64,000 bases of DNA from a virus. The position numbers and the translations under genes were made by a program. Below, in pieces: positions 1-33,979 of this stretch. The notes below the pieces were generated by a model. That model saw only the letters and a program-made list of their open reading frames with translations, made no database searches and was not told where the DNA came from. How positions within the stretch are numbered: the first letter of the stretch is position 1; the number at the start of each line of letters is the position of its first letter. The DNA lies in the IMG/VR virus record IMGVR_UViG_3300045988_074170. One strand, given 5' to 3'.

Positions 1-98
1 GTTCTTTTGCAAGAAGATTAGGGTCAGCAACGGCACTTACTGAAGCCGTGCCCCCCCCCCCCAGACTCGGGAGTGATAGTAAGAAAATCTTTCTTCAT
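1..98 (-). CDS. 5' end of an MKKDF-family gene (paralog of 4091..4755) that runs off the left edge; the frame is broken at a G12 run
   Basis: The ATG at 98..96 reads MKKDFLTITPESGGGG and then HGFSKCRC-stop at 26..24. The frame reached by dropping one G of the run at 51..62 reads GGGGTASVSAVADPNLLAKE and stays open to position 1. This aligns with GGTTQVSVVADPN at the 4091..4755 locus. Confidence 0.45.
51..62 (-). repeat. Homopolymer C12 on the plus strand (G12 in the sense strand) inside the 5' end of a coding region
   Basis: Counted directly: c at 51..62, flanked by g50 and a63. Confidence 0.95.
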
Positions 99-225
99 AA
101 TTTTACTTTTAATGATTGAAACGAAATTATTTATGCTATTGACGTCAATTATAGCCGATTTAGGAAGTTATAAGTATGCCCCGAACAAATTGTCCGGAGC
201 ACACCTTTGATTGCCGTGTAGAGCC

Positions 226-1491
226 TTATAAGATGACCGCAAGGCTTGATACCACGTCATCGAAGTAATCCATTTGTGTGATACTTGCTTTATCACCGAA
301 ATACTTCTTGAGTTTCTTTTCAACATACGCACCAGCCGGAATAGCCATAATGGGCGAAGTAATGCGTACAGGGTAACGAACGACACACGTATATTCTCGA
401 CCCTCTTCTTCATTGACCGTATAGGAAACAAGGAAGTGAGGAGTGGCGAGGTCGGCTGGCTTCATATTCTGGTCAAGAATGTGAGCCGTTGCGAGTTTCT
501 CACCGTTCAGGAAAGACAGGTACTCCCAATAGAGAGGCTCAATCTCACAATTCCCTTTGATGAACTTCTGAGCCAACTCCATAAGATATTTCACGGCATC
601 TTTGTTGCTTAGTCCTACCGGAATGATGAATTCGTTGATGTACAAGAACGGTTCTTCACGCTTGTCATTTCTGTCGAGCGGATATACTGCACAGGCTATA
701 CGAGCCAGACCAAGTTCCTTCGGGTCAGTATCGTCTTTCACGACACGATATCCCGGAATAGGACAGTCAATGAATTCACGGGTGTCCTCAGGATTGTCCG
801 GACTGTCAAGTTCACCGACTGCGCTCAATACCTGTTCACCACGAACCAGAGCCGGAACCCAAGCGGTGCGGTCTTCGTTCTCATCGCTGATGCGAGCCCA
901 AATCATTTTCTCCTCAGGAAGTTTTTCCTCGGAGTCAGGCTGAAACAGGTTTCCTTCCGGAGTCTTGACGTACTGTTCAATCTCCTTGTCGGTCATTCCC
1001 TGCGGGTTGAGTTCGTGAACCAATGTAACTCCTAACAGTTCCCAGCCCATACCGTCTGGCTCTGCGTTCATGGCTTTCTTGAAGTCCTGAATCAGATTGT
1101 CTGTGAGCAATGCGGGTGCGGGTAACAAGTAGGATTTTCGAATGATACGTGTGCCGCACTGACCTACCTTTCCAAACTTGCCTTCGTAGATGTAAATCTT
1201 CTTTTCCTCAAGAGACTGAGGCTGATACGGCTTTACGCCTGACAATTTCTTCGAACGACATGCCTGACATTCATCATCGCAAACGGTTGAGGTGAAACAA
1301 TAGTTCGGATACTGTTTAGATGTTGAAACAGCGTGAAGAGGTGTGCCTCCTACATGACCAATCTTAAGATACGACAAACAAAGGTCATACATCAAGTCGG
1401 CATTGGTTTCTTCTGTAACGTTTACAGGCATTTGAAACTCCTGCGGTTTGCCGTCTGGGTCGGCATAGATAAAGTTATAAACTACTTTCAT
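226..1491 (-). CDS. hypothetical protein (421 aa)
   Basis: Long ORF co-oriented with its neighbours. It contains a Cys cluster (CFTSTVCDDECQAC). I recognise no family. Confidence 0.7.
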   Translation of the reverse strand: MKVVYNFIYADPDGKPQEFQMPVNVTEETNADLMYDLCLSYLKIGHVGGTPLHAVSTSKQYPNYCFTSTVCDDECQACRSKKLSGVKPYQPQSLEEKKIYIYEGKFGKVGQCGTRIIRKSYLLPAPALLTDNLIQDFKKAMNAEPDGMGWELLGVTLVHELNPQGMTDKEIEQYVKTPEGNLFQPDSEEKLPEEKMIWARISDENEDRTAWVPALVRGEQVLSAVGELDSPDNPEDTREFIDCPIPGYRVVKDDTDPKELGLARIACAVYPLDRNDKREEPFLYINEFIIPVGLSNKDAVKYLMELAQKFIKGNCEIEPLYWEYLSFLNGEKLATAHILDQNMKPADLATPHFLVSYTVNEEEGREYTCVVRYPVRITSPIMAIPAGAYVEKKLKKYFGDKASITQMDYFDDVVSSLAVIL

Positions 1492-1516
1492 AATCGGAAA
1501 TGAATTTAGATTGTTG

Positions 1517-1921
1517 TTAAATTTGGATTGAATAAACCGGAGTATCGAACATCGATATCTTTCCGGGAACGAGTTTCTTCTGTTTCATGTCAGGAACTTG
1601 AAACATGACAGGAGTTGCATGATGTTCCGGTACGTGCTTGAACCGTTCGAAATACAACTCAATAGCATTGAGAGTTGTGATGGCTGAGACCTGTGCCATT
1701 TCAGCCTCCTCTTTTGAACCATACAGGGACGAGAACAGCCTTTCACCTGTAACTAATAAGATAGAGAAGCGAAACTTCCCCTTGGGAGCTGTTAGAGCGT
1801 GAACCTCGCTGACTTCTTTGATGTTCTCAACTCGGTAGGCTTTCTGAACCTCTACGAGTTCTTCACGTTTGGCGGCAGCTTCCTCTTGTGGTGTGACCCA
1901 TGATTTAATGAATATGAACAT
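1517..1921 (-). CDS. hypothetical protein (134 aa)
   Basis: ORF tightly packed in the minus-strand gene array. Confidence 0.6.
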   Translation of the reverse strand: MFIFIKSWVTPQEEAAAKREELVEVQKAYRVENIKEVSEVHALTAPKGKFRFSILLVTGERLFSSLYGSKEEAEMAQVSAITTLNAIELYFERFKHVPEHHATPVMFQVPDMKQKKLVPGKISMFDTPVYSIQI

Positions 1922-1953
1922 AACTTTCGATTTTAAATTACAATGAAATAACG

Positions 1954-2310
1954 CTATTCGACTGGACTGTCACCAGTAATCTCGTAAATCTTTCCATCTA
2001 CCTGTTTGTAGGGAGTGAGGTCATCTGTTACCTGTATAAGTTCACATGGCTTATCGTTGAAGTAAACGGCTTTCGTAGACCAATCTTCCAAGTTTCTGAT
2101 GTAGATATAAGCCACGATATCTTTACTGATATACCACTGAATCTTGCATACAAAATCTTTGTAATGGTTGAAGAAATTATACCACGTTACAATGTTCCAG
2201 AACAGTTCTTCTTCCCCAGCATCCTTAAAAGACACATACTGAGCAGGGAAGATGAGGTGGCTGTACCACCACCTCATGAACCAACCTAATTTATTCTTCC
2301 TCTTTTGCAT
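1954..2310 (-). CDS. hypothetical protein (118 aa)
   Basis: ORF overlaps the upstream gene by 20 nt, as expected for operon packing. Confidence 0.55.
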   Translation of the reverse strand: MQKRKNKLGWFMRWWYSHLIFPAQYVSFKDAGEEELFWNIVTWYNFFNHYKDFVCKIQWYISKDIVAYIYIRNLEDWSTKAVYFNDKPCELIQVTDDLTPYKQVDGKIYEITGDSPVE

Positions 2311-2923
2311 TCTTGAGAGCCTCCTTTAAGTCAGGTTTCAATGTCGCACGAATATTCTCGATAGTGTCACACAGGTTCGACGCAGGTTTCTTAGCATCGT
2401 CGTTCTTTTCATCCCAATCAGAAGTAATGATATCCATATAGATAAGATACGCTTCGGGGAACTCTTCCTGAAGTCTGGTGGGAGTGAACCGTGTCATCTT
2501 CATGAGACACTTCAGACGCTTCTCCATGTGATAGCGGTCTCTCTCAACAATGAGATATTCCTTTACCAAAGAAGCGATACTGTCATTATCCTTGAGTTTA
2601 CCGATGTATGATTTAACATTTTCGTATTCATAAGGTATATCACAGGAAAATTTCAGGCGAATGTAGATAGTACGGCTTCCCCAATCTTCCGGGAACCATC
2701 CCTTCGGCAAGTTATAGGAGGAGAGCGTCGCTTCGTTACAGCGAAGGAAGAACTCCTCATGTGCTTTGAAACAAGCCAGAACGTCCTCAGGCGTCTTTTC
2801 GATAAACCGTTTCTCGATAGCTTCATTGAGCTTTTCCCGGAGAGCGTCGAGCTTCTCTTTGTAGTTCAAATTTGCCAGCCGTGTGGCAATCGTCAATCTG
2901 GTGTCTTCTACAATTACTGCCAT
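2291..2923 (-). CDS. hypothetical protein (210 aa)
   Basis: ORF in the minus-strand array. No recognisable motif. Confidence 0.6.
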   Translation of the reverse strand: MAVIVEDTRLTIATRLANLNYKEKLDALREKLNEAIEKRFIEKTPEDVLACFKAHEEFFLRCNEATLSSYNLPKGWFPEDWGSRTIYIRLKFSCDIPYEYENVKSYIGKLKDNDSIASLVKEYLIVERDRYHMEKRLKCLMKMTRFTPTRLQEEFPEAYLIYMDIITSDWDEKNDDAKKPASNLCDTIENIRATLKPDLKEALKNAKEEE

Positions 2924-2929
2924 GTCGTT

Positions 2930-3688
2930 CTACTTTTTAGGGTTCATATTCAAAATTTTTGCTTTCGGTTGAGGAGCCTGTTCTGGCTCGTGAGGGACTT
3001 CCCACAGCATAGGCACGTATGTGAACTGCTCCTGTGGTTCAGGGTTCGCTTCCATAAGGAATACCACTTTGTCGGTTGCTTCGCTCTCTGTAAGGTTCTG
3101 TAAGGGATTATCGTCCTTATCCTTTACAACTTCACCATCCGACAGGCGAATGACCTTAAATAGAGGCTCAGGGAGTTCCATGTTGGTGAACTCTGTGACG
3201 TCGAGATAATCACACCCGAAGTTCTCAGCCGTCTTGAGGTCGCTGTCGCTGAACTGTCCTTCCAGACCAGAGGCATCCCCTATCATTAGACAGTCTTCTT
3301 TGGAGATTGTGATACCTGTATTGTGAGTGAACTCAGCCAGCATGTCCTCAAGCATTCCCGGATTGGGTTTACGTTTCGGATGCTTCTTGTCATTGTAGGG
3401 ACAGAACTGTCCGGCAACAAGCGTATTCAAACCGATGTACGATTGAAGGCACGCAATGACGTAGATGAATTTCGGTTGGAACATAGCGGGATGAACGCGT
3501 CCCAGTTCAATTCCACCCTGATTAGATACGATGAGAACAGCCTGTGGATGAAGTTTCTTGAGTTGCGCAAAAACCTCCATTTTCAGTTTCATGTCCCAGA
3601 CTCCTTCCGGGAACGTTTTGCCGGATTCGGTATCGATGAGCGTACCGTCCATGTCGATGAAGATGACTTTCTTCTTTGTAATGTCCAT
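2930..3688 (-). CDS. HAD-IIIA polynucleotide 3'-phosphatase-like protein (PNKP phosphatase domain) with a C-terminal extension
   Basis: Motifs FIDMDGTLIDT (DxDxT), VSNQGGI, KPNPGML and IGDASGLEGQFSDSDLKTAENFG match the DNA/RNA 3'-phosphatase branch of the HAD family. Confidence 0.7.
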   Translation of the reverse strand: MDITKKKVIFIDMDGTLIDTESGKTFPEGVWDMKLKMEVFAQLKKLHPQAVLIVSNQGGIELGRVHPAMFQPKFIYVIACLQSYIGLNTLVAGQFCPYNDKKHPKRKPNPGMLEDMLAEFTHNTGITISKEDCLMIGDASGLEGQFSDSDLKTAENFGCDYLDVTEFTNMELPEPLFKVIRLSDGEVVKDKDDNPLQNLTESEATDKVVFLMEANPEPQEQFTYVPMLWEVPHEPEQAPQPKAKILNMNPKK

Positions 3689-4043: not shown

Positions 4044-4068
4044 GAAAATCCCCGAATTTCTTCGGGGA
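4041..4068 (-). terminator. intrinsic terminator hairpin plus T-tract, fused to the next promoter
   Basis: The stem tccccgaa/ttcgggga spans 4049..4068 with a 4-nt loop. The sense strand continues TTTTCTTTG. Confidence 0.6.
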
Positions 4069-4090: not shown

Positions 4091-4755
4091 CTATGTAAAA
4101 TCGAACTCTGCAACGCATACATACTCACCTTGGTTCTGTGGGTTTCCAAGATAGAATCTGACGTATTGAAGTACGTGATATTCAGGAGAAAACTTATTTT
4201 TATCAGCCATTCTCAAATAATGAGCCGTAAAGCCTGAGATTCCAACGTTTTCGGGGTTACTCTGGACAATGTCAGAATAAAATTTGGTTTCGGCTCCAGG
4301 TTTACTCTTGTAGATAGTTTCCATAAAAACACCATTGTTCCACGGCTCTGGCCATACGTCTTCAAAAGAATCAGCCAGTAGAAGAGCACCCCTTGTCACC
4401 CAATAAGTGTCTGAGGTTTCGGATACGGATGGGAGTTTTGCGTTCATTTTTACAGAAAGATAACTGACCCCACGTTCGTAGCCATTGTCATTCCGGACTG
4501 AAGTCGTTGAAAACCCTGTTGCATTGAACGAAAGTGTTACAGTTCCATTTCAATTGTCACTAAGTGAAGTGAGCCCCACGACAGGCATAAGCGGTATGCT
4601 ATCTTGATTAACGGTTATCGCTCGTGATACCCCCTCCCCAGCGGAGAAGTTCAGTGTCGTTGAGCGAGACTGAAATGCTGAATTGGGGTCAGCAACCACG
4701 CTCACTTGGGTCGTCCCCCATTATCAGGGGAAACAGTAATGAAATCCTTTTTCAT
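4091..4755 (-). pseudogene. MKKDF-family gene, interrupted by a frame change at a G5 run and an in-frame TGA; either a pseudogene or a recoded gene
   Basis: The ATG at 4755 reads MKKDFITVSPDNGGRPK-stop. The frame one base back, from the G run at 4715..4719, reads GTTQVSVVADPNSAFQSRSTTLNFSAGEGVSRAITVNQDS...SLSDN. It then meets TGA at 4552..4550 and continues in the same frame, without further stops, through NGTVTLSFNATG... into the ORF-track ORF 4091..4447. Confidence 0.55.
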
Positions 4756-11362: not shown

Positions 11363-11797
11363 TCATAAGACTTCAATGATTTGTTCAATGTGAAACTTCC
11401 TGACCTTCCCCTCTTCCAAGTCCTTCCCGGACAGGTGCTGCCCTCGTCTTTCGTCTATCTTTATCACACGATAGGCTCTTTTAGGAAGTACCATCCGTCC
11501 GGGAATATGTTTGTCAGGCATACCAAACTCTTCGAAACATACTCTAACAGTATCCCCGACCTTTACCCTGTCACACATTTCCTCGAAACTCTTGAAGTCG
11601 AACACAGGGGTTCCGGCTTCTGAATGGTTTAGGAACTTCGTCAACTCGTCACGGAGGTTTCTCACCTCTCCCATGGACATCACCTGAAAGAACGATGCCG
11701 TCGTTCCGTCGGTGATTCCTACTTTCACGGTTCGCCCATACTTATCAGGCTCTTCCGTCTGAATGATTGGTTTCAATGTCTTCATCTTTATCTTCAT
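11363..11797 (-). CDS. hypothetical protein (144 aa)
   Basis: ORF that overlaps the 3' end of the upstream gene. Confidence 0.5.
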   Translation of the reverse strand: MKIKMKTLKPIIQTEEPDKYGRTVKVGITDGTTASFFQVMSMGEVRNLRDELTKFLNHSEAGTPVFDFKSFEEMCDRVKVGDTVRVCFEEFGMPDKHIPGRMVLPKRAYRVIKIDERRGQHLSGKDLEEGKVRKFHIEQIIEVL

Positions 11798-11984
11798 TTA
11801 TAAACTGTTTCATAAACGGACAATCATCTCCACAGGGGTAAACCGTACCATCACCTCCTGGGTCTTGCCACGTAGGTAAGGCACGCAAGTCGGCTGTGCA
11901 ACACGTTTGACCATCTCCGAGGAGAGTAGTATTGAAATGCTCACAAGTTCTTCTGTGCGCTTCTATTTGTTCTTTCGTCTTCAT
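11745..11984 (-). CDS. small Cys-rich protein (start trimmed to the ATG at 11984)
   Basis: Reads MKTKEQIEAHRRTCEHFNTTLLGDGQTCCTADL...CGDDCPFM. The ORF-track start at 11993 is a GTG. Confidence 0.5.
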   Translation of the reverse strand: MKTKEQIEAHRRTCEHFNTTLLGDGQTCCTADLRALPTWQDPGGDGTVYPCGDDCPFMKQFINEDKDEDIETNHSDGRA

Positions 11985-12024
11985 GACCACCACTGATTTT
12001 TAACAACTTTCATATAATAGTTTC

Positions 12025-12750
12025 TTACGACATCTGGACTGGCGTTGGCATAGAACGCTGGAGAATCGCAGAAGTTATCGAAGAACGGCTTGGTAATCCC
12101 CCCCCCCTGCGGAACTCCGCTTCTATCAGGTTCTCGAACCGTCCTTGGGCTTCCACCCACTGTACTTCCTTGGGTACAGGCTCAACCGCAATCTTTCGTA
12201 GGAGCACATTCAGCAAGTCTTCAGGGTCGAAGATGTTGAGTCCCTCAAGATACTCCGTGAGATTTAAGCCTGTTGGGATTTCGTCCTTGAAACAATGCGT
12301 AGGGATTTTTGCGTTTCTGATTGAATCAATCTTCGTGTCCCACGTCGACTTGTTAAGTTCTATCCATTCACGTTCATCAGGACGAGTGTCGTAGATTGTG
12401 AAGTATCTGTCCCGCTCGTTCTCGTTCGGGTAAATCATCAGATACGACATCCCGAGGTTGTCGAACACTTCACGTGCCTTCGGGTGCATAGCACACACGA
12501 CAATCTGACCTCGCTCAATAGCCTCAACACAGAACCGAGCATAGTTTTCAGGGAAGTCAGGATTAACGATGCCTTTCTTCTTGTCGGTGTAATACTGTTT
12601 CGAGAAGAACCCGTCAATGAATGTAGGGTGAATCATCGTAAGATATGTCTTGCCGATACCAGGATATCCGCACACCGCATTAATCTTACCATCAAGGAAC
12701 GCTCGACGTATCGCCAAGCGGTTCTCCGTCATTGTTACAGGCTTGTCCAT
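12025..12750 (-). CDS. P-loop NTPase; the C-terminus is uncertain because of an internal G10 run
   Basis: Walker A is CGYPGIGKTY. The G10 run at 12098..12107 lies in the codons for RRGGG. See the finding on the alternative frame that ends in an ATGA overlap at 11984..11981. Confidence 0.6.
   Translation of the reverse strand: MDKPVTMTENRLAIRRAFLDGKINAVCGYPGIGKTYLTMIHPTFIDGFFSKQYYTDKKKGIVNPDFPENYARFCVEAIERGQIVVCAMHPKAREVFDNLGMSYLMIYPNENERDRYFTIYDTRPDEREWIELNKSTWDTKIDSIRNAKIPTHCFKDEIPTGLNLTEYLEGLNIFDPEDLLNVLLRKIAVEPVPKEVQWVEAQGRFENLIEAEFRRGGGLPSRSSITSAILQRSMPTPVQMS
12098..12107 (-). repeat. Homopolymer C10 on the plus strand (G10 in the sense strand) inside a coding region
   Basis: Counted directly: c at 12098..12107. 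Confidence 0.95.
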
Positions 12751-26003: not shown

Positions 26004-27623
26004 CTACTTTTTATTTGGTTCATCATTTGCGGACATAGCACAAGACGTATTCAGGAACTGAATAGCGACTGAAACAGAGTTTTCCAGGGACACTCTTGAC
26101 ACTTTCGCAGGGTCAATGATTCCTGCCTCAAACATATCTTCTATCTTCTCAGTAACAGGGTTGAAGCCTTTCCACCACATCGGGTCGTCGTTGTTTGTCA
26201 AGTCGACTTCGATACGGGTTGCGTTCACAGAAGCATTTTCACACAACTGATTGAACGGAGCCATCAACGCTTGAGCCACTACATTCCAACCGATAATGAA
26301 GTCAGGATGCTCCTCGTGAAGTGAAGGCATATTGCGTAGGTGGTCTGACGCTCTCAACTGTACCGTACCACCTCCGGGAACGTATCCCTCTTCCAACGCT
26401 GCCCGAGTTGCGGCAATAGCGTCGTCAACACGGTCTTTTCGCTCCTTCATCTCTACCTCACTGTCCGCACCTACATAAACGACGGCTGCTCCTCCTGTAA
26501 GTTTCGAAATACGTTCACGATACTTCTCTTGGTCGTAAGAGTTCGTATTCTCCTCCATTAGATGTTTAATAGCCTCTACTCTGGTATTTATATCGGCTTC
26601 CGTACCAACACCTCCTACGAGGATTGTACGATTAGTAGAAACGACTGTGCGTTCACACTCGCCCAGCCAGTCTGTACCGAGTTGGTCAAGCGGACGTCCA
26701 AACTCATCGCCTACCACCTTTGCACCTACCTTAACAGACAAGTCCTCTATCATGTCCTTCTGGATTTGACCATATCCGGGAGCCTTTACGAAACAGGCTT
26801 TTAACCCGTTCTGCTGCTGAATGTTTGTCACAAGAAACTTGATAACGTCATTAGACGCATTAGGAGCAACGATAAGAACGCTGCGTTTCGCTGAATAAAC
26901 TGTCTGAATGATAGGAAGGATTTCCTGGGGATAGTTGATGTTCTGTCCGAAGATGAGAATGTACGGCTTATCAAGCACGCATTCTATACGCTCTGGGTCT
27001 GTAACGAAATACGGGTTCACCAAGCCTTTCTCCCACTGAAAACCTGTGGTCACTTCAACTGTGGTTTCATTTCCCTTGCTGCTTTCCTCAACTGTAATCA
27101 CTCCGTCGTTTCCTACCTTTCCGATAGCCTCCGAAATGATACAACCAACCTCCAAATCACCGTTTGCGCTGATAGTGGCAATCTGATTTACACGGTCGAA
27201 CTCTGTCTCACCAATTTCCTTCGCCATCGCTTTGATGAACGAAACGGCTTCTGAACGAGCAGCCTCCATTCCTTCCTTGAAACGCTGTGGATTCTTGACA
27301 TTAGGAAGAACATTCATTCCCTCTTTAATGAGCGCACGGGTGAGGATTGTGGCTGTGGTTGTACCGTCACCAGCCTCGTCACAGGTCTTTGCCGCAACAG
27401 TCTTAACGAGCGTTGCTCCCATACGTTTCATCGGGTCGTCGGTATCGTACGCACGGGCAACAGTTACACCATCTTTCGTGATGTGAGGAATGCCATACCC
27501 TTTGTCAATGATTACTGAATGTCCCTTCGGACCGAGAGTAGAAGATACTGCATTAGCGAGTTCATCAATTCCTTCGAAAAGAGCCTCTTGAGCAGATTTG
27601 TTGAATAAAATCTTTACATTCAT
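26004..27623 (-). CDS. groEL: GroEL-type (group I) chaperonin
   Basis: Motifs are AAKTCDEAGDGTTTATILTRAL (ATP site) and GGAAVVYVGADSEVEMKERKDRVDDAIAATRAALEEGYVPGGG. There is no GGM tail. Confidence 0.9.
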   Translation of the reverse strand: MNVKILFNKSAQEALFEGIDELANAVSSTLGPKGHSVIIDKGYGIPHITKDGVTVARAYDTDDPMKRMGATLVKTVAAKTCDEAGDGTTTATILTRALIKEGMNVLPNVKNPQRFKEGMEAARSEAVSFIKAMAKEIGETEFDRVNQIATISANGDLEVGCIISEAIGKVGNDGVITVEESSKGNETTVEVTTGFQWEKGLVNPYFVTDPERIECVLDKPYILIFGQNINYPQEILPIIQTVYSAKRSVLIVAPNASNDVIKFLVTNIQQQNGLKACFVKAPGYGQIQKDMIEDLSVKVGAKVVGDEFGRPLDQLGTDWLGECERTVVSTNRTILVGGVGTEADINTRVEAIKHLMEENTNSYDQEKYRERISKLTGGAAVVYVGADSEVEMKERKDRVDDAIAATRAALEEGYVPGGGTVQLRASDHLRNMPSLHEEHPDFIIGWNVVAQALMAPFNQLCENASVNATRIEVDLTNNDDPMWWKGFNPVTEKIEDMFEAGIIDPAKVSRVSLENSVSVAIQFLNTSCAMSANDEPNKK

Positions 27624-27702: not shown

Positions 27703-30700
27703 TTATTTCTTCGGTCGCTGTGGTATTTCGCACGCACCTCCGGCACAGGCTGTCGCAATTTCACTTCCAGCCTGTTTAAGCGGTTCTTCCCATACGATGT
27801 TATCGTAGGAAACAGGCTTCATTCGACAGATGGCTTGCCACTTGTGGTATGCGTTCACGTGCTTCAAACAGTACGATGTCTTCTGACGGTCGCCTTCCAT
27901 ATACTTGTCGGCAAACGAATTGAAGCGACGCACCCAATCCAACCGTCTTTCAACACGTCGTTTCAGGTAGTCAATAACACAGTTCACGTCTGAGAAACAG
28001 ATACCGTCAATGTCAACGAGGAAACGTCCGTCCTTAATATTCTCAACAACGAAGTCGGCTATCTGTTTGTCGTTGATTGTAAGCAACTGTGGAGCCAACC
28101 CCATCGCTGCGTTACAGGCTTCCCAAACATCTTTGAACACGTCATTCGCATCAACGATAAGACCGCTCGACAGAATTGCTCCTGCTCCGTAGCGTTCCGC
28201 CAACTCAACCTCGTCAAGAACTTCGGTGTACGGTGCTTGAGGATAGTCCAAATCACCGAATGATGATAACAGGCTGATACCACCAAACTGGTCACGATGT
28301 TCCCACAGGAACTCCCGTACTTCATCCCATTCATCTGGGCGAACTGTACAGGTATTTGACACGTTCATTCGAAGTTTCGGATTGTCAAGTGTAGAAGGAT
28401 GAGTCAGGTTCGTACCGTACTCAATCCAGTTCTGTTTCGTTAAGAGAACATATTTCAGGAATTCAATTGCTGTCAGGTTCTGTTTCAGCAACGCTCCTTC
28501 GGGAAGTGTAACAGGGAAAGCGATAACCTTTTCACGGTCAGGAGCCCAAACGCTCGCTTCTACCATATCCGGATTGACACGTTCCCACTCTTGAACAGCC
28601 TGTTCAGTATCCGCAGCCTGAATGTGACGAATGTAGTGACGAGCGTGTCCGGCAGTTATTCCTGACAAGGTTCCAAGGAGTTGTGAACTGTTCCCAGACG
28701 GCTTCACAACTGTACACCGTGCAGCCTCGTTGATACCTATCATTCGTGCAATCTTCTTGTTGGTCTCTACAACGATTTGAGCACCACGCTTCTGTACTTC
28801 TGGGTCGAACAGGATAGCAGGGTTCTCACAGAGACCCGTAATGCCCACACCGATAAGAGCGTCCCGCTCGGCTATCAACTGTGACCATTTCTCAAGCACA
28901 CGGAAATTCGTGTAACCAGCCTGCAGGGTACAGATAACAGAAGCAGCTTCGCACGCATCGTAGAAGTCTTGCTCGCTCTGAACTTTTCCCCCGTTGATTT
29001 CCGCTAAATTACAGAATCCCCATCCTGAATGCGTAACTCCATCTTCGTCTTTAATTTGAGGGAACATTCCCACCTCGCCACAATTATGAACTAAAACTCC
29101 AGTACAATTTTCATAATTTTCATCACCTTTTGTAATGATATAAAAATTATGATTATCTTCCACAGTTAAATCATAAACAGGCTCTACACCACAAGCGACA
29201 ACAGATTCAACCCTAACAGAAATTTCTATTGATTCCTTCTCAGGCTTGATATATTCCCTTTCGTCAACTTCTTCAATATAAGGTTGTCCAGAAAGAACTA
29301 AATTTCTTAAGTTTTCAATCTTTCCACCAAACCTATTCTTGGACAAATTTTTAGGAAAACGACTGTCTAATTTATTGCAATTTGCACAAGAAATATATCC
29401 ACCGTTCTCATGAACTTTCTTGGCAATTTCATATAACTCTTTATTTGTTAACCCCTTGTATCTTCCGTTCTTTTCAAGAGTTGTAGAAATTGACATATTA
29501 TGAGAATATGCTTTCACATCTTTTCTTCTAAACATCGGGTTATTTTCACCTAATCTTTCAGAAGCTGATTTTTCTTGATGTTTCCCCCTTTCAAGCAAAT
29601 GTAAGTTTTCAATAAAATCTCCTTTGCCATTTTCAATGTGGTCAATATCAAACCCTTCAGGAACATCCCCATTAAAATATTCCCAAATCATTCGGTATTG
29701 ACGCGCATACCCATTACTTCGAGAACAAATTGTCCGATATTTTTCTTTTATCGTAAAGAAAGGTTGAAGTTCTTTCCCAACACACTTACATGCTTCCAAA
29801 TAAGTTCCATCTTTCAAAGCAAGTTTATGATTTGGGGTGCACTTAAATTTCGTTCCGTCCGAAAGTGTTACTTCAACAACTTCCTTATCACCTGTTTTAA
29901 ATGCTATTGCCTTTTTAATTTCAGGTTTCCATCTTTTCGAATTGCGTCCAGCTTTGTCAACCCACTTTCCAGAATACACGGGAAATTCTTTTACATTTTC
30001 CGCCAATTCTTTTATAGAAACGGCATTCCTTCCATCAGCAACCGCCACAAGAGTTTCCCCCGTAAAACAAGGATTATATACAAAGTCTGTCTTATCAATG
30101 AACACGAATCCAGGCTCCCCATACAATTTCGTGAATTCAAATATTGAATCAAATGTTTCCTTTGGGGTATCCGGAAGAATAGCAGCGGAATTATTACTTC
30201 GACAAAGTTCTGGCATCGTTGAAATCCAATTTCCTGTCTTACAAGAAGCCATTTCAGCATCATCAGCATCAAAGATACTTATCATCGCTGAACGTCGAAC
30301 TCCCCCTGTAACGACGCTATTCGCACAGATACAGATAAGATAGTGAAGTTCAAACGGTCTCAATTTCCGTCCTTTAATACGTGTAATGATGTGGTGGCAC
30401 TTCTCTATCGCCTGACGCAACGGTTCGGGTCCAGGAGCCTTGAATCCCCCTCTGATGTATGCACCTTTCGGGCGGATTGCTGAATAGTCAAACTCAATGT
30501 CCGCACCACCATAATAGTAAGCGGTCATCATCTTACCAACAGCCTCTGCCCACCCCTCAATCGTATCAGGTATCACGAATTTCTCAGCCTGTTTCGAGTT
30601 ATCAAATCCTTTGGGCACAGGAAGTCTATCCGTGTGAATGTGCTGAACGCTGTAACCTGTCCCAGCACCACAGAGCAACAGATACATGATTTCCTCGAAT

Positions 30701-31032
30701 ACGCATACACGGTCGACATAGGTAGAGGAACAGTTATAGAAGCGAGCGTGTTTCTCTAACATCAATTCCCCACCATACTGTAATGCACGCTGGGCTCCCA
30801 ATACACGCTGCTCAGAATACAGGCTGTATGCATGAGCAAACATCTTACTGAACTCAGCCTCATCCTCAGGCTTTAATCTACCGGAATAGCGTTTCAAGTG
30901 CATATCCATTACTCTGTTCACGGCATCCTGCCATGTTTCCTTTTTCCCATCATGGGTTTGGGAATACTTGCTCAAAAACACGTACTCCCCGACCACTGGT
31001 CGACTGTCCTTTTCAATCATGTTTCTCTTCAA
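27703..31032 (-). CDS. nrdJ: class II (adenosylcobalamin-type) ribonucleotide reductase interrupted by an intein
   Basis: The exteins join as ...DFVYNP + CGEVGMF, restoring the NPCGE catalytic motif. The C-terminal redox pair is CAGGAC. Confidence 0.85.
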   Translation of the reverse strand: MKRNMIEKDSRPVVGEYVFLSKYSQTHDGKKETWQDAVNRVMDMHLKRYSGRLKPEDEAEFSKMFAHAYSLYSEQRVLGAQRALQYGGELMLEKHARFYNCSSTYVDRVCVFEEIMYLLLCGAGTGYSVQHIHTDRLPVPKGFDNSKQAEKFVIPDTIEGWAEAVGKMMTAYYYGGADIEFDYSAIRPKGAYIRGGFKAPGPEPLRQAIEKCHHIITRIKGRKLRPFELHYLICICANSVVTGGVRRSAMISIFDADDAEMASCKTGNWISTMPELCRSNNSAAILPDTPKETFDSIFEFTKLYGEPGFVFIDKTDFVYNPCFTGETLVAVADGRNAVSIKELAENVKEFPVYSGKWVDKAGRNSKRWKPEIKKAIAFKTGDKEVVEVTLSDGTKFKCTPNHKLALKDGTYLEACKCVGKELQPFFTIKEKYRTICSRSNGYARQYRMIWEYFNGDVPEGFDIDHIENGKGDFIENLHLLERGKHQEKSASERLGENNPMFRRKDVKAYSHNMSISTTLEKNGRYKGLTNKELYEIAKKVHENGGYISCANCNKLDSRFPKNLSKNRFGGKIENLRNLVLSGQPYIEEVDEREYIKPEKESIEISVRVESVVACGVEPVYDLTVEDNHNFYIITKGDENYENCTGVLVHNCGEVGMFPQIKDEDGVTHSGWGFCNLAEINGGKVQSEQDFYDACEAASVICTLQAGYTNFRVLEKWSQLIAERDALIGVGITGLCENPAILFDPEVQKRGAQIVVETNKKIARMIGINEAARCTVVKPSGNSSQLLGTLSGITAGHARHYIRHIQAADTEQAVQEWERVNPDMVEASVWAPDREKVIAFPVTLPEGALLKQNLTAIEFLKYVLLTKQNWIEYGTNLTHPSTLDNPKLRMNVSNTCTVRPDEWDEVREFLWEHRDQFGGISLLSSFGDLDYPQAPYTEVLDEVELAERYGAGAILSSGLIVDANDVFKDVWEACNAAMGLAPQLLTINDKQIADFVVENIKDGRFLVDIDGICFSDVNCVIDYLKRRVERRLDWVRRFNSFADKYMEGDRQKTSYCLKHVNAYHKWQAICRMKPVSYDNIVWEEPLKQAGSEIATACAGGACEIPQRPKK
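29083..30069 (-). mobile_element. intein (329 aa) with an HNH-type endonuclease insert, in the RNR active-site motif
   Basis: The intein starts CFTGETLVAVADG (Cys codon 30069..30067) and ends GVLVHN (Asn codon 29085..29083). The +1 residue is Cys. Internally it carries DIDHIENGKGDFIENLHLLERGKH. Confidence 0.85.
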
Positions 31033-31474: not shown

Positions 31475-33979
31475 TTAACAATATATTAAACTCTTTCTCG
31501 CACGTGTTATAGCCACGAATTGGAGACACTTTTCAGCATATAAAGCCAGTTCAGTTGTCGCATACTTACTTGGTAGGAGTTCCGGCTGAAGAAAGAATAT
31601 TCTGTCTGCTTCCAACCCCTTACTTTTGTGAATGGTCGACAGCGTGATACCACGACTGGCGTTCTCTACAAATATATCGTAAATCCGGGAGCGCACGGTT
31701 TCCAAATCACCGAAATATTCGTACAGGCTCAACAAAACATTCACTTTCTCATTCAACTTGTCGTATGCCTCACACTTGGTTGGACTCTTAACTCCCTTCT
31801 TCTGCAACTTACTTATCATGTTCTCAAGAACCTGTTCAAGCCCCCATACGTCCTCGACGCTGTCTATGAGCGATACAAGTTCATCACCGAATTCCTTCCC
31901 AAGAATTGTGCACTTCTTCCCCTGCCGTAACAGGGTGATGAAAGCGTCAACCAACGGAGCGTTATTCCGGCACAGAATGAAATCCCCTTCCTGAGCGTCC
32001 TTAAATGTACCGTCCCCAACGAACCCTTTAACCGCTCCAGGAGCAGCCACTATACCATCGGGGAACACTTTACAGGCTTCGGCAACTATATCCTGGGCAC
32101 AACGATATGTCATTGACAGAGGCAACGTCACTGTATTAGGAGCATTCTTGATAGCCTGTAACGAGTCAAGATTACTCCCCATGAATGAATAGATTGACTG
32201 CTTTTCATCCCCTACTGCTATCAGGCGACCTCGTGGCGTCTTGCACATCTTCACGACCTCGAACTGTAATGGGCTGATATCCTGACACTCGTCAAGCATA
32301 ACGACATTGTACTGTTTGAAGTCTTCCCGATGAACGTATTGAGTCGCATAATATAACATATCGGTAAAGTCCATAGGGAGTTTCCCTCCCCCACCTTTTA
32401 GGAAGTAATTATCGGCAATCCTTTTGTTAAGCATACGGAGCTCTATTGCTCTCTTAGCGAGTTCTTCGTCAGCGTCCTCACCGTACCTCTCCCCCAATGC
32501 TATTATTGCCTCTATATCGTCTGGTACGAGGTTAAATCTCATGAGGTCATAGAGCCTACATACTTTCATTATTATTCCGGGAATGCGCTTCGGGTGAACC
32601 CCTTTGAATTCCATCTTCTCTTTCGCCAGATTGAAATTCTTTGAATCACTCAGGCTGAAATTCAGGCTGAATGCTTTGCACAGGGACGACAGCGCACAGG
32701 AGTGAAGTGTCTGAGCCTTTACAGTTCTTGGAAGCCTCTGCCCAAGTTCTTCAGCTATTGACTTATTGAAAGCCAAGAAGATTGAACTCTTTATAGGAGG
32801 AGTCATCTCCGCTAACTTGCACAGGGTGAATGTCTTCCCAGAATTATGAGTAATAGTAAAATCCCCTAATAGATATCTATTATCCCCATCAACAGTAAAA
32901 CCAAACCACGCACCCTTTCCAATAGGTTTTAAAGAAAATCCAGTGTGAAGCACATCTTTTATTTGTTTTCTCTTACTTGCCTTTTTTCGTGAAAGAATGT
33001 TAGGAATAATCTCTGTATGACCCGAAATCCCTATTCTAAAATAATATGCTTCAAAATTTCTTGATTTAATTGTTGAACGTTTCCATTTATAAGACGGATA
33101 TAACCCTAATGAACGAACTAAGTAAACAATTCCCTCTCCCAAGGACTCCCATTTCGTTGAAATTGAAAAACAACATCCATCACTTTTCTTATATCCATCG
33201 CCATCAATAAGTCCAGCAAGAAGTCTTAATCTGTTCTCCACTGAATTAATCAGATAATTTTGAGGAATGAAAACATTTCCCAATTCATCAATGCATTTCT
33301 TAAATTCCTCCCTAAAAATATTTTTAGAACCGCACCCCACAAATCTTACCTGAACACAATTTTCACTATCATCTTTTATTTTGCATTCAATTCCTTTTGG
33401 AAGAGGATAAGATAAAAGATAATCAATAATATCTGAATCCTGTTTACATATACTAAAATATGGATTTCCTTTGTGCTTCGTTCCTTCTGCAAGCCATAAC
33501 CCTAACAAATAAGGGTCAATAGGGATGGTTTCCTCCTTAAATTCGACACCTGTTCTGACAAGTTTTAAATGACCAATTTCGCCATTATTTTTCTGAAATT
33601 TTAAAATTTCTTTAATATGTTTGTCAACTATATCAGAAGTCTTTGCCGAATTATATAGCCTCATTGAACGAGTAATATATTGGTCATGAACAGTAAAAAT
33701 ATGCTCATCATTACATATCCATTTTTCACCCTTTTTCGGAGAAACTTCATACAAATTAGAAATTCCGCTATCAATTTTCAAAACATTTCTTGGGCAAGAA
33801 TCTGGTCCCATTAATACGTCTCCAACGCAAATTTCTTGAGACAATTTTGTTGAACCATCAAACATTAAAACCTTGACATCTTTTCCAAGACATCCAGCCG
33901 TTGCGCTGACGAAAATGTTCCTGTTCGTACTTTGGTATTCGTCAACTATCGCCTGTTTATATTCGTCCAATTTCGCCAT
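31475..33979 (-). CDS. UvrD/PcrA-family (SF1) helicase interrupted by an intein in the Walker A motif
   Basis: The exteins join as SATAG + SGKTFTL. Other motifs are VVMLDECQDISPLQ, TIHKSKGLEADRIF and VAITRARKSL. Confidence 0.85.
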   Translation of the reverse strand: MAKLDEYKQAIVDEYQSTNRNIFVSATAGCLGKDVKVLMFDGSTKLSQEICVGDVLMGPDSCPRNVLKIDSGISNLYEVSPKKGEKWICNDEHIFTVHDQYITRSMRLYNSAKTSDIVDKHIKEILKFQKNNGEIGHLKLVRTGVEFKEETIPIDPYLLGLWLAEGTKHKGNPYFSICKQDSDIIDYLLSYPLPKGIECKIKDDSENCVQVRFVGCGSKNIFREEFKKCIDELGNVFIPQNYLINSVENRLRLLAGLIDGDGYKKSDGCCFSISTKWESLGEGIVYLVRSLGLYPSYKWKRSTIKSRNFEAYYFRIGISGHTEIIPNILSRKKASKRKQIKDVLHTGFSLKPIGKGAWFGFTVDGDNRYLLGDFTITHNSGKTFTLCKLAEMTPPIKSSIFLAFNKSIAEELGQRLPRTVKAQTLHSCALSSLCKAFSLNFSLSDSKNFNLAKEKMEFKGVHPKRIPGIIMKVCRLYDLMRFNLVPDDIEAIIALGERYGEDADEELAKRAIELRMLNKRIADNYFLKGGGGKLPMDFTDMLYYATQYVHREDFKQYNVVMLDECQDISPLQFEVVKMCKTPRGRLIAVGDEKQSIYSFMGSNLDSLQAIKNAPNTVTLPLSMTYRCAQDIVAEACKVFPDGIVAAPGAVKGFVGDGTFKDAQEGDFILCRNNAPLVDAFITLLRQGKKCTILGKEFGDELVSLIDSVEDVWGLEQVLENMISKLQKKGVKSPTKCEAYDKLNEKVNVLLSLYEYFGDLETVRSRIYDIFVENASRGITLSTIHKSKGLEADRIFFLQPELLPSKYATTELALYAEKCLQFVAITRARKSLIYC
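32843..33892 (-). mobile_element. intein (350 aa) with a LAGLIDADG homing endonuclease domain
   Basis: The intein starts CLGKDVKVLMFDG (Cys codon 33892..33890) and ends FTITHN (Asn codon 32845..32843). The +1 residue is Ser. The LAGLIDADG blocks are LLGLWLAEGT and LLAGLIDGDGY. Confidence 0.85.

Follow-up and report, generated by a model that had tools for sequence, protein, structure and literature searches.

Length-variable poly-G tracts at conserved codons of BACON-domain cassette genes in a probable human-gut phage: likely contingency loci

The IMG/VR virus record IMGVR_UViG_3300045988_074170 was analysed as one stretch of 64,000 nucleotides (nt), hereafter the window. The gene of interest lies at the beginning of the window on the minus strand, is cut by the window edge, and carries an uninterrupted run of 12 G shortly after its start codon. 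The gene belongs to a family of small cassette genes encoding a BACON domain. The features at the locus are the following:

1..98, minus strand: 5' end (32 codons) of the BACON-family cassette gene; the remainder lies beyond the window edge and the full gene is known from relatives
51..62, minus strand: poly-G tract 1, G12, beginning at codon 13 (four GGG codons, 13-16), out of frame here
99..225, minus strand: upstream intergenic flank of the cassette, conserved in relatives, including one without the gene (L024) and one with only a degenerate 5' remnant (L028)

The minus-strand ATG at 98..96 stands 12 codons before the tract and is followed by MKKDFLTITPES and then by G12 at 62..51, which appears as C12 on the plus strand. 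With the tract as assembled, the gene reads GGGGHGFSKCRC and ends at a TGA at 26..24. With one G fewer it reads GGGGTASVSAVADPNLLAKE and stays open past the window edge, the in-frame lengths being G11 or G14. With G12, the window gene is in the OFF state. A previous reading made from the letters only (the sequence-only reading) had reported the ATG, the 12 codons and the 12 G at codons 13-16, as well as the termination at 26..24 and the opening of the frame with 11 or 14 G. The sequence was found to be as described, and both frame statements were correct when re-checked.

The G12 run is not a product of chance, since only 0.001 G/C runs of 12 or more are expected from the base composition in 64 kilobases (kb). 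The only G/C runs longer than 6 in the window were this G12 and a G10 at 12098..12107, both with G on the sense strand, which is the minus strand in both cases. The other homopolymers were short: no A run exceeded 5 and no T run exceeded 6 across the 64 kb of 56% A+T DNA. By a rough estimate several runs of 7 or more were expected, versus none found outside the G tracts, which suggests selection against slippage-prone runs throughout the window with the exception of the G tracts. The share of GGG among the glycine (Gly) codons of the window was only 20%, and therefore the pure G runs are not a product of codon usage.

The locus was retrieved from other assemblies, designated here by L numbers, with the neighbouring gene of 421 amino acids (aa) (226..1491, minus strand) as the anchor. 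The window gene's family in the relatives codes for a BACON-domain protein of 167-177 aa; in L002 the gene is intact and in frame (11394-11912, 172 aa). The Pfam BACON profile PF13004 matched residues 3-56 with 28.6 bits for the window-gene type and 38.4 bits for the paralog type described below, the gathering cut-off being 25. A second G run, tract 2, is located about 85 nt downstream of tract 1, outside the window, and was determined as G14 in L002 and G10 in L001. The encoded parts of the BACON domain are rich in Gly at both tracts, with PESGGGGT at tract 1 and SATGGGGGLSR at tract 2. At least 14 unrelated C-terminal families stand behind the same arrangement, which consists of an identical 36-nt 5' end, tract 1, the BACON core and tract 2. 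On this sequence basis the gene comprises an N-terminal BACON (immunoglobulin-like) domain and a swappable C-terminal domain. A strong terminator-like hairpin follows the gene in L002 (11935-11964), and each cassette is closed by a near-identical terminator hairpin. The cassette is dispensable, since L024 lacks it and L028 retains no more than a degenerate remnant of its 5' end. No obvious N-terminal hydrophobic signal peptide was seen when the sequence was judged by eye.

Tract 1 was compared between the window, taken as the reference, and its nearest relatives over up to 2.9 kb upstream of the tract. The mismatches per compared nucleotides and the state of tract 1 were:

Window: reference; G12
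L001: 0 mismatches / 2938; G10
L003: 0 mismatches / 1942; G13, with the contig ending 5 nt later
L002: 2 mismatches / 2938; G11
L075: 1 mismatch / 927; G10
L030: 3 mismatches / 1797; GGGGGAGGGGG (interrupted)

As the length varies over near-identical flanks, either the tract changes far faster than its surroundings or the reads are ambiguous on its length.

The family census covered 82 loci, 79 of them from scans of IMG/VR and metagenome contigs and 3 retrieved with the anchor. An exact-flank DNA pattern scan of IMG/VR gave no contigs beyond those already found. At these loci 97 gene copies began with MKKDF or MNKDF and had a G run at the same codon, with lengths of G5-G13 and a modal length of G10 (37 of the 97 copies). 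Tract 2 was present in most of the copies with lengths of G5-G14. The usual count per genome was two such genes, corresponding to the window gene and a paralog about 4.6 kb upstream. More distant members of the clade (portal 83-85% identical) had MKKDF..PD[TS] followed by G9 or G10.

When a change of at most 1 nt per tract was allowed, a complete open reading frame (ORF) of at least 140 aa, mostly 167-226 aa, was obtained for 87 of the 97 copies. As assembled, tract 1 was in frame in 25 of these 87, needed +1 in 32 and needed -1 in 30, and tract 2 was in frame in 27 of 79. Both tracts were in frame, corresponding to the ON state, in 13 of the 87 copies, which is near the expectation for random lengths. 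The in-frame length of tract 1 was 2 modulo 3 for some alleles and 0 modulo 3 for others. The pairwise ratio of nonsynonymous to synonymous substitution rates (dN/dS) was 0.46 among 24 sequences of the window allele and 0.23 among 18 of the paralog allele, and the values were the same among OFF-OFF pairs. In the protein database about 100 clusters of in-frame versions of 167-178 aa were found, with 2-5 Gly at each site. The paralog type was present there at full length (218-223 aa) and also as fragments of 203-212 aa and 164-165 aa, which are the gene callers' rendering of OFF alleles.

In relatives whose tracts are interrupted or absent, a mixture of Gly codons encodes the corresponding loops. 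L037, with interruptions in tract 1 and in tract 2, has an intact ORF of 171 aa; a third paralog has no tracts, codes for the site with GGA ACA GGG and was intact in the assemblies examined. The occurrence of pure G runs in about 100 copies and at least 14 allele families, given the low share of GGG, implies that it is the repeat as such that is maintained. The coding sequence of the assemblies contained no other long G/C runs, and in close relatives no further tracts were present up to 10 kb from the portal gene. Eight contig ends were located at or inside a tract, and a ninth at the third tract described below; such breaks are expected if the reads within a sample disagree on the length, for biological or technical reasons.

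A few copies had deletions or rearrangements (L019, L029, L057, L016). In L029 (2852) and L057 (7401), the deletions span exactly from tract 1 to tract 2, and the first half of the BACON domain is gone; the downstream frame is open in both, a 1-nt tract correction being still needed. In L019 (7399), the sequence departs from the other alleles directly after tract 1. The tracts may also serve as deletion or recombination endpoints.

The second cassette gene of the window has the following features:

4091..4755, minus strand: paralogous BACON cassette gene, ATG at 4755, with a frameshift at a decayed tract 1 and a nonsense codon
4715..4719, minus strand: decayed tract 1 of the paralog, G5 with loss of the next T, too short for the frame by 1 nt; the site is G5-G11 and then TACGACC in relatives
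4630..4639, minus strand: tract 2 of the paralog, interrupted (GGGGAGGGGG), in frame, encoding GEG; relatives have G6-G10
4550..4552, minus strand: TGA nonsense codon (TGG-to-TGA) at a conserved tryptophan (Trp) codon; 20 of 20 relatives of the allele outside the strain have Trp (TGG)
4049..4068, minus strand: terminator-like hairpin and T run closing the paralog cassette; a near-identical hairpin follows the first gene in relatives

The relatives of the paralog gave intact proteins of 220-223 aa after tract correction, and the defects listed were identical in the separate assembly L001. From its sequence, the paralog at 4091..4755 is probably a pseudogene in the window strain. The sequence-only reading had matched the in-frame continuation of the window gene with this paralog; the match is real (MKKDFITVSPDNGG..TTQVSVVADPN), but the frameshift and the TGA of the paralog had been overlooked. 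Recoding of the TGA to Trp was rejected: TGA ends 11 of the 47 long ORFs of the window, the case is a single one, and the relatives have TGG. A common programmed-frameshift direction for the two paralogs of the window was also rejected, as one of them needs +1 and the other -1.

The third tract of the window is located in an unrelated gene:

11981..12750, minus strand: P-loop-like gene (GYPGIGKT motif; PHROG 4182), counted with the 41 C-terminal codons of the alternative frame, which overlap the next gene at ATGA
12098..12107, minus strand: third poly-G tract, G10, near the 3' end of the gene; the conserved C-terminus needs G8 or G11

The ORF as assembled comprises 12025..12750 (241 aa), and the alternative frame runs to 11981. 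In the G8/G11 frame the gene reads ...RRGGGITKPFFDNF...NQWWS* and ends in the ATGA overlap. The relatives had G8, G9 (three) and G10 (two), and one contig ended inside the tract. Among the eight substituted codons downstream of the tract, seven were synonymous in the G8/G11 frame and the eighth was a double change, ATTACC to ATGTCC. The third tract of the window is out of frame; the result is no simple truncation, since a different tail of 28 aa replaces the last 41 residues.

The tract length, its polymorphism, the toggling of the frame in an otherwise intact ORF, and the retention of the repeat against codon usage were all observed here, and these are the sequence characteristics of contingency loci. 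We consider it likely that the poly-G tracts are hypermutable contingency loci, at which slipped-strand mispairing turns accessory BACON cassettes ON and OFF stochastically. The sequence-only reading had named phase variation as one possibility, and it is backed by the length differences between near-identical assemblies, the conservation of the tracts and the intact, constrained ORFs. Both the commonest length, G10, and the random frame states are compatible with mutational equilibrium of the tract under selection that acts only intermittently.

In the proposed mechanism, the tracts would gain or lose single Gs by slipped-strand mispairing during phage replication, the responsible polymerase being presumably the phage's own DnaE-type enzyme. 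Each change of +1 or -1 would, as can be read directly from the sequence, shift the frame, so that it is lost or regained. The full protein would be produced from only about 1/9 of the length combinations per gene. With tract 1 out of frame the predicted product is 15-24 aa, and with only tract 2 out of frame it is about 44-72 aa. Changes of 3 nt would just add or remove one loop Gly and appear to be tolerated, judging by the 2-5 Gly in the in-frame proteins. The phage population would then be a mixture of ON and OFF genotypes, probably a reversible one, and with 2-3 gated paralogs per genome a burst could contain a combinatorial mix of genotypes. The products may be dispensable binding modules on the virion or the host surface with a bet-hedged display, by analogy with the receptor-binding proteins of Fletchervirus. 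A conserved anchor joined to a variable domain is also the layout of many phage binding proteins and would suit a virion or binding role. The tract-bearing BACON genes are about 8 kb away from the portal gene and do not belong to the structural module. The sequence-only reading had suggested a possible structural or surface protein, which the presence of a BACON domain neither confirms nor refutes.

Several results weigh against this interpretation. The ON state was not enriched over chance, so the consensus sequences do not positively indicate that expression is selected. G10 at tract 1 was in frame in 0 of 34 copies, and a modal length that is never in frame could point to another expression route. 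The tract lengths were taken from assembled contigs and not from individual reads, and the assemblies of different collections may share samples, so the gene copies cannot all be counted as independent. The polymerase chain reaction (PCR) and next-generation sequencing are prone to errors in long G runs, and any single count, G12 included, may be off (PMC4965091). Sequence searches of the BACON cassette proteins against PHROGs and PDB gave no match, and two AlphaFold2 runs on shallow family alignments gave poor models with predicted local distance difference test (pLDDT) values of 56 and 53. With the second, poor model, Foldseek against PDB returned no match with E < 1e-3 and no template modelling score (TM-score) above 0.4, which is uninformative.

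The same data could be explained otherwise if the genomic tract were meant to be out of frame and the protein were produced by programmed recoding, through RNA polymerase slippage or ribosomal frameshifting on the GGG codons. RNA polymerase is able to slip on long homopolymers, and the glycine transfer RNA can re-pair in any frame on consecutive GGG codons, which counts for this explanation together with the 74 of 87 copies that are out of frame with ORFs still intact and constrained, and with the modal G10 never being in frame. Programmed sites, however, keep a fixed motif, whereas the tract lengths varied here from 5 to 14; 32 copies would require a +1 shift and 30 a -1 shift, and each gene would need two independent shifts. 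The first 147 nt of the gene, from the start codon to just past tract 2, folded no better than shuffled controls (z = +0.82), and the out-of-frame G5-G7 alleles are too short for efficient slippage. Programmed recoding is accordingly judged improbable, and the programmed slippage suggested in the sequence-only reading was not borne out given the variable length, the need for both shift directions and the lack of RNA structure. Where a tract is long, RNA polymerase or the ribosome may slip incidentally and so give some leaky expression, as a by-product and not as a rival mechanism. It is quite unlikely that the ON/OFF effect is secondary and that the main role of the G tracts is at the DNA level, either as junctions at which cassettes are shuffled or deleted or as G-rich structural elements. 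Such a role would suit the identical 36-nt 5' end and tract that stand before at least 14 unrelated C-terminal families, the two deletions running exactly between the tracts and the divergence of L019 right after tract 1. Yet the allele families diverge past the BACON domain and not at the tracts, the stretch of BACON sequence that the tracts enclose can be aligned from family to family, the third tract is in an unrelated gene that is not a cassette, and pure G runs of 9-11 are unnecessary for a junction.

Sequencing or assembly error was also weighed, i.e. that the true tracts are fixed and in frame and the frameshifts are homopolymer-length miscalls. Error and PCR slippage grow with the length of the G run, and PCR inflates the apparent poly-G variation 20-35-fold (PMC4965091). 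Many of the contigs are of low coverage (1-15x according to the contig names), contigs break at the tracts, and G10, G12 and G13 occurred in three assemblies with 100% identical flanks, the read sets of which are possibly the same or related. Nevertheless, most of the G6 and G7 alleles, which are reliably read by Illumina, did not keep the frame (18 of 21 at tract 1 and 21 of 26 at tract 2). Variants of G8, G9 and G10 were found at the third tract, and the G11 and G14 alleles assembled readily, so there is no technical length ceiling. Error can neither create nor conserve pure-G Gly loops in about 100 copies and at least 14 allele families, and other long G/C runs were lacking in the coding sequence of the assemblies. 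As the general explanation, error is very unlikely. The sequence-only reading had allowed for it, and it may apply to the exact count of 12 in the window gene, but it fails for the out-of-frame G6/G7 alleles and for the conservation of the tracts. The least probable explanation, with hardly any weight given to it, is that the cassettes are dispensable remnants decaying as pseudogenes and broken at the G runs. The window paralog does look dead, with both a frameshift and a nonsense codon, the gene is missing or degenerate in L024 and L028, and the four rearranged copies described above point in the same direction. The 87 of 97 copies without any defect besides the tract length, the dN/dS of 0.23-0.46 with the OFF-OFF pairs included, and the approximately 100 in-frame protein clusters speak against decay, which would moreover scatter the lesions and not focus them in two conserved pure-G runs.

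The reading of the tracts as contingency loci can be extended, tentatively and with considerable doubt, to a multi-locus 'phasome'. In a widely distributed clade of phages from the human gut, it would consist of 2-3 stand-alone cassettes per genome, each with a conserved BACON anchor, one of at least 14 interchangeable C-terminal binding modules and two poly-G gates, and would give combinatorial virions or infected-cell phenotypes against variable Bacteroidales surfaces or mucus. The tracts would perhaps be junctions for cassette deletion or exchange as well, a further tract would toggle the C-terminus of the P-loop-like protein, whose gene lies beside the replication genes, and the default OFF state (G10) would be a designed set-point of low expression reached through mutational bias.

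The closest known system is that of the Fletchervirus phages of Campylobacter, for which hypermutable poly-G tracts in receptor-binding protein genes have been described (Sorensen et al. 2021, Cell Rep 35:109214, as cited in bioRxiv 10.1101/2025.10.21.683753 and PMC11959909). In both cases the poly-G tracts are on the sense strand inside phage ORFs and there are several per genome, with lengths of 7-11 in Fletchervirus and 5-14 here. In Fletchervirus the length changes switch the frame and produce mixed phage populations; here the frame switch follows from the sequence and the mixed population would be its expected outcome. In contrast to the Campylobacter myovirus, the lineage described here is an unrelated one of the Bacteroidota-type gut phages with a different host phylum, and the targets are small BACON cassette genes instead of genes for established receptor-binding proteins. 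Two serial tracts per gene and one tract swapping a P-loop-like C-terminus also differ from Fletchervirus; these are known here at the level of the genome sequence. The Fletchervirus case was called 'exceptional' in a 2025 review (PMC11959909). If the proposed interpretation is true, the tracts provide a second independent phage example of genome-encoded phase variation by repeat slippage, beyond essentially one well-studied case, and the example would be in an uncultured, frequently assembled human-gut phage lineage.

In comparison with the bacterial poly-G/C contingency loci of Campylobacter jejuni, Neisseria and Haemophilus (PMC4965091), the anatomy, the proposed slipped-strand mispairing, the length range and the otherwise intact ORFs are similar. 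G10 was the commonest tract length scored in a 28-locus phase-variation assay of Campylobacter jejuni (PMC4965091), and the same mode was determined here. Unlike the bacterial loci, the present tracts are in a virus with its own DnaE-type polymerase. Homopolymer slippage has been proposed as bet-hedging at contingency loci of the T2/T4 coliphages (Gomez, Barrick and Waters 2025, bioRxiv 10.1101/2025.10.21.683753). Those are short runs of any base (6 or longer) in all gene classes, whereas here homopolymers are otherwise avoided and long pure-G runs stand at conserved codons of one gene family. Poly-G tracts were also noted in phage BPP-1 and PB1-like phages. No report of poly-G tracts in gut, Bacteroides or Bacteroidota phages or in BACON proteins was found in the literature searched.

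For the BACON domain (PF13004) in gut-phage proteins, adhesion to glycans or host cells has been proposed (de Jonge et al. 2019, PMC6949934; Benler et al. 2021, PMC8008677). The BACON proteins of crAss-like and other gut phages are large, contain tandem repeats and belong to structural modules, in contrast to the single BACON domain of the stand-alone cassettes described here (167-226 aa). Poly-G, frameshifts and slippage are not mentioned by de Jonge et al. 2019 (PMC6949934). Diversity-generating retroelements (DGRs), known from BPP-1 and from Quimbyviridae (PMC8008677), resemble the present tracts as a built-in, targeted diversification of putative gut-phage binding proteins. DGRs, however, act by mutagenic retrohoming with a reverse transcriptase and alter specificity, whereas repeat slippage at the tracts would alter presence or absence. 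The interest of the present system comes from the host environment, the protein family and the multi-locus architecture. The natural ON, OFF and locked alleles give a genetic handle on BACON proteins, the role of which in gut phages is speculative. There is also a consequence for annotation, as gene callers and virome pipelines split or truncate the tract genes and contigs break at the tracts.

Among the genes of the window, a replication module was recognized with a DnaE-type polymerase, a ribonucleotide reductase, GroEL, an NAD-dependent ligase, an SbcC-like protein and helicases. The main features of this region are:

26004..27623, minus strand: GroEL-type chaperonin
27703..31032, minus strand: ribonucleotide reductase of 1109 aa
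48901..52401, minus strand: DnaE-type DNA polymerase III alpha subunit

The best cultured-phage matches of the DnaE-type polymerase were from phages of Tenacibaculum, Cellulophaga, Chryseobacterium and Bacteroides, with identities of 30-40%. The metagenome contigs with a source in their name were all from the human gut, and the longest contigs were about 105-114 kb. The portal gene is located about 8 kb past the window edge. Megablast of window positions 1-3000 against cultured phages gave no DNA-level match, and the GTDB genome contigs contained no relative of the neighbouring gene and thus no clue to a host or prophage. A Bacteroidota host is suggested by the polymerase matches, the BACON domains and the human-gut source, and the virus is probably a human-gut phage of about 109 kb infecting this phylum. 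In Bacteroidales, the presumed hosts, phase variation is known mainly through DNA inversion and not through repeat slippage.

In the intergenic flank upstream of the window gene (99..225), no promoter was identified, the sigma-70 scan being uninformative. A perfect 10-bp palindrome, TTGACGTCAA, lies inside this conserved flank at 148..139 (minus-strand sense). It is kept in the relatives, at times with one base changed, and is also found in L024 and L028. Its sequence makes it a candidate that could be a regulator-binding site.

Within the replication module, the ribonucleotide reductase exceeds the PHROG profile by about 400 aa and was matched by it in two stretches; the protein may contain an insertion or an intein. 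A protein of 834 aa (31475..33979, minus strand) combines an N-terminal part matching terminase-large-subunit-like ATPase PHROGs with a C-terminal part matching a DNA helicase, which is an unusual fusion for a replication module. In distant relatives, low-complexity blocks of T, G and C (e.g. T12..G15..C runs) occur at or near contig ends (L115:1-40, L123:1-60, L137:1130-1175); these blocks have no relation to the coding tracts and may represent either the ends of the genome or artefacts of assembly.

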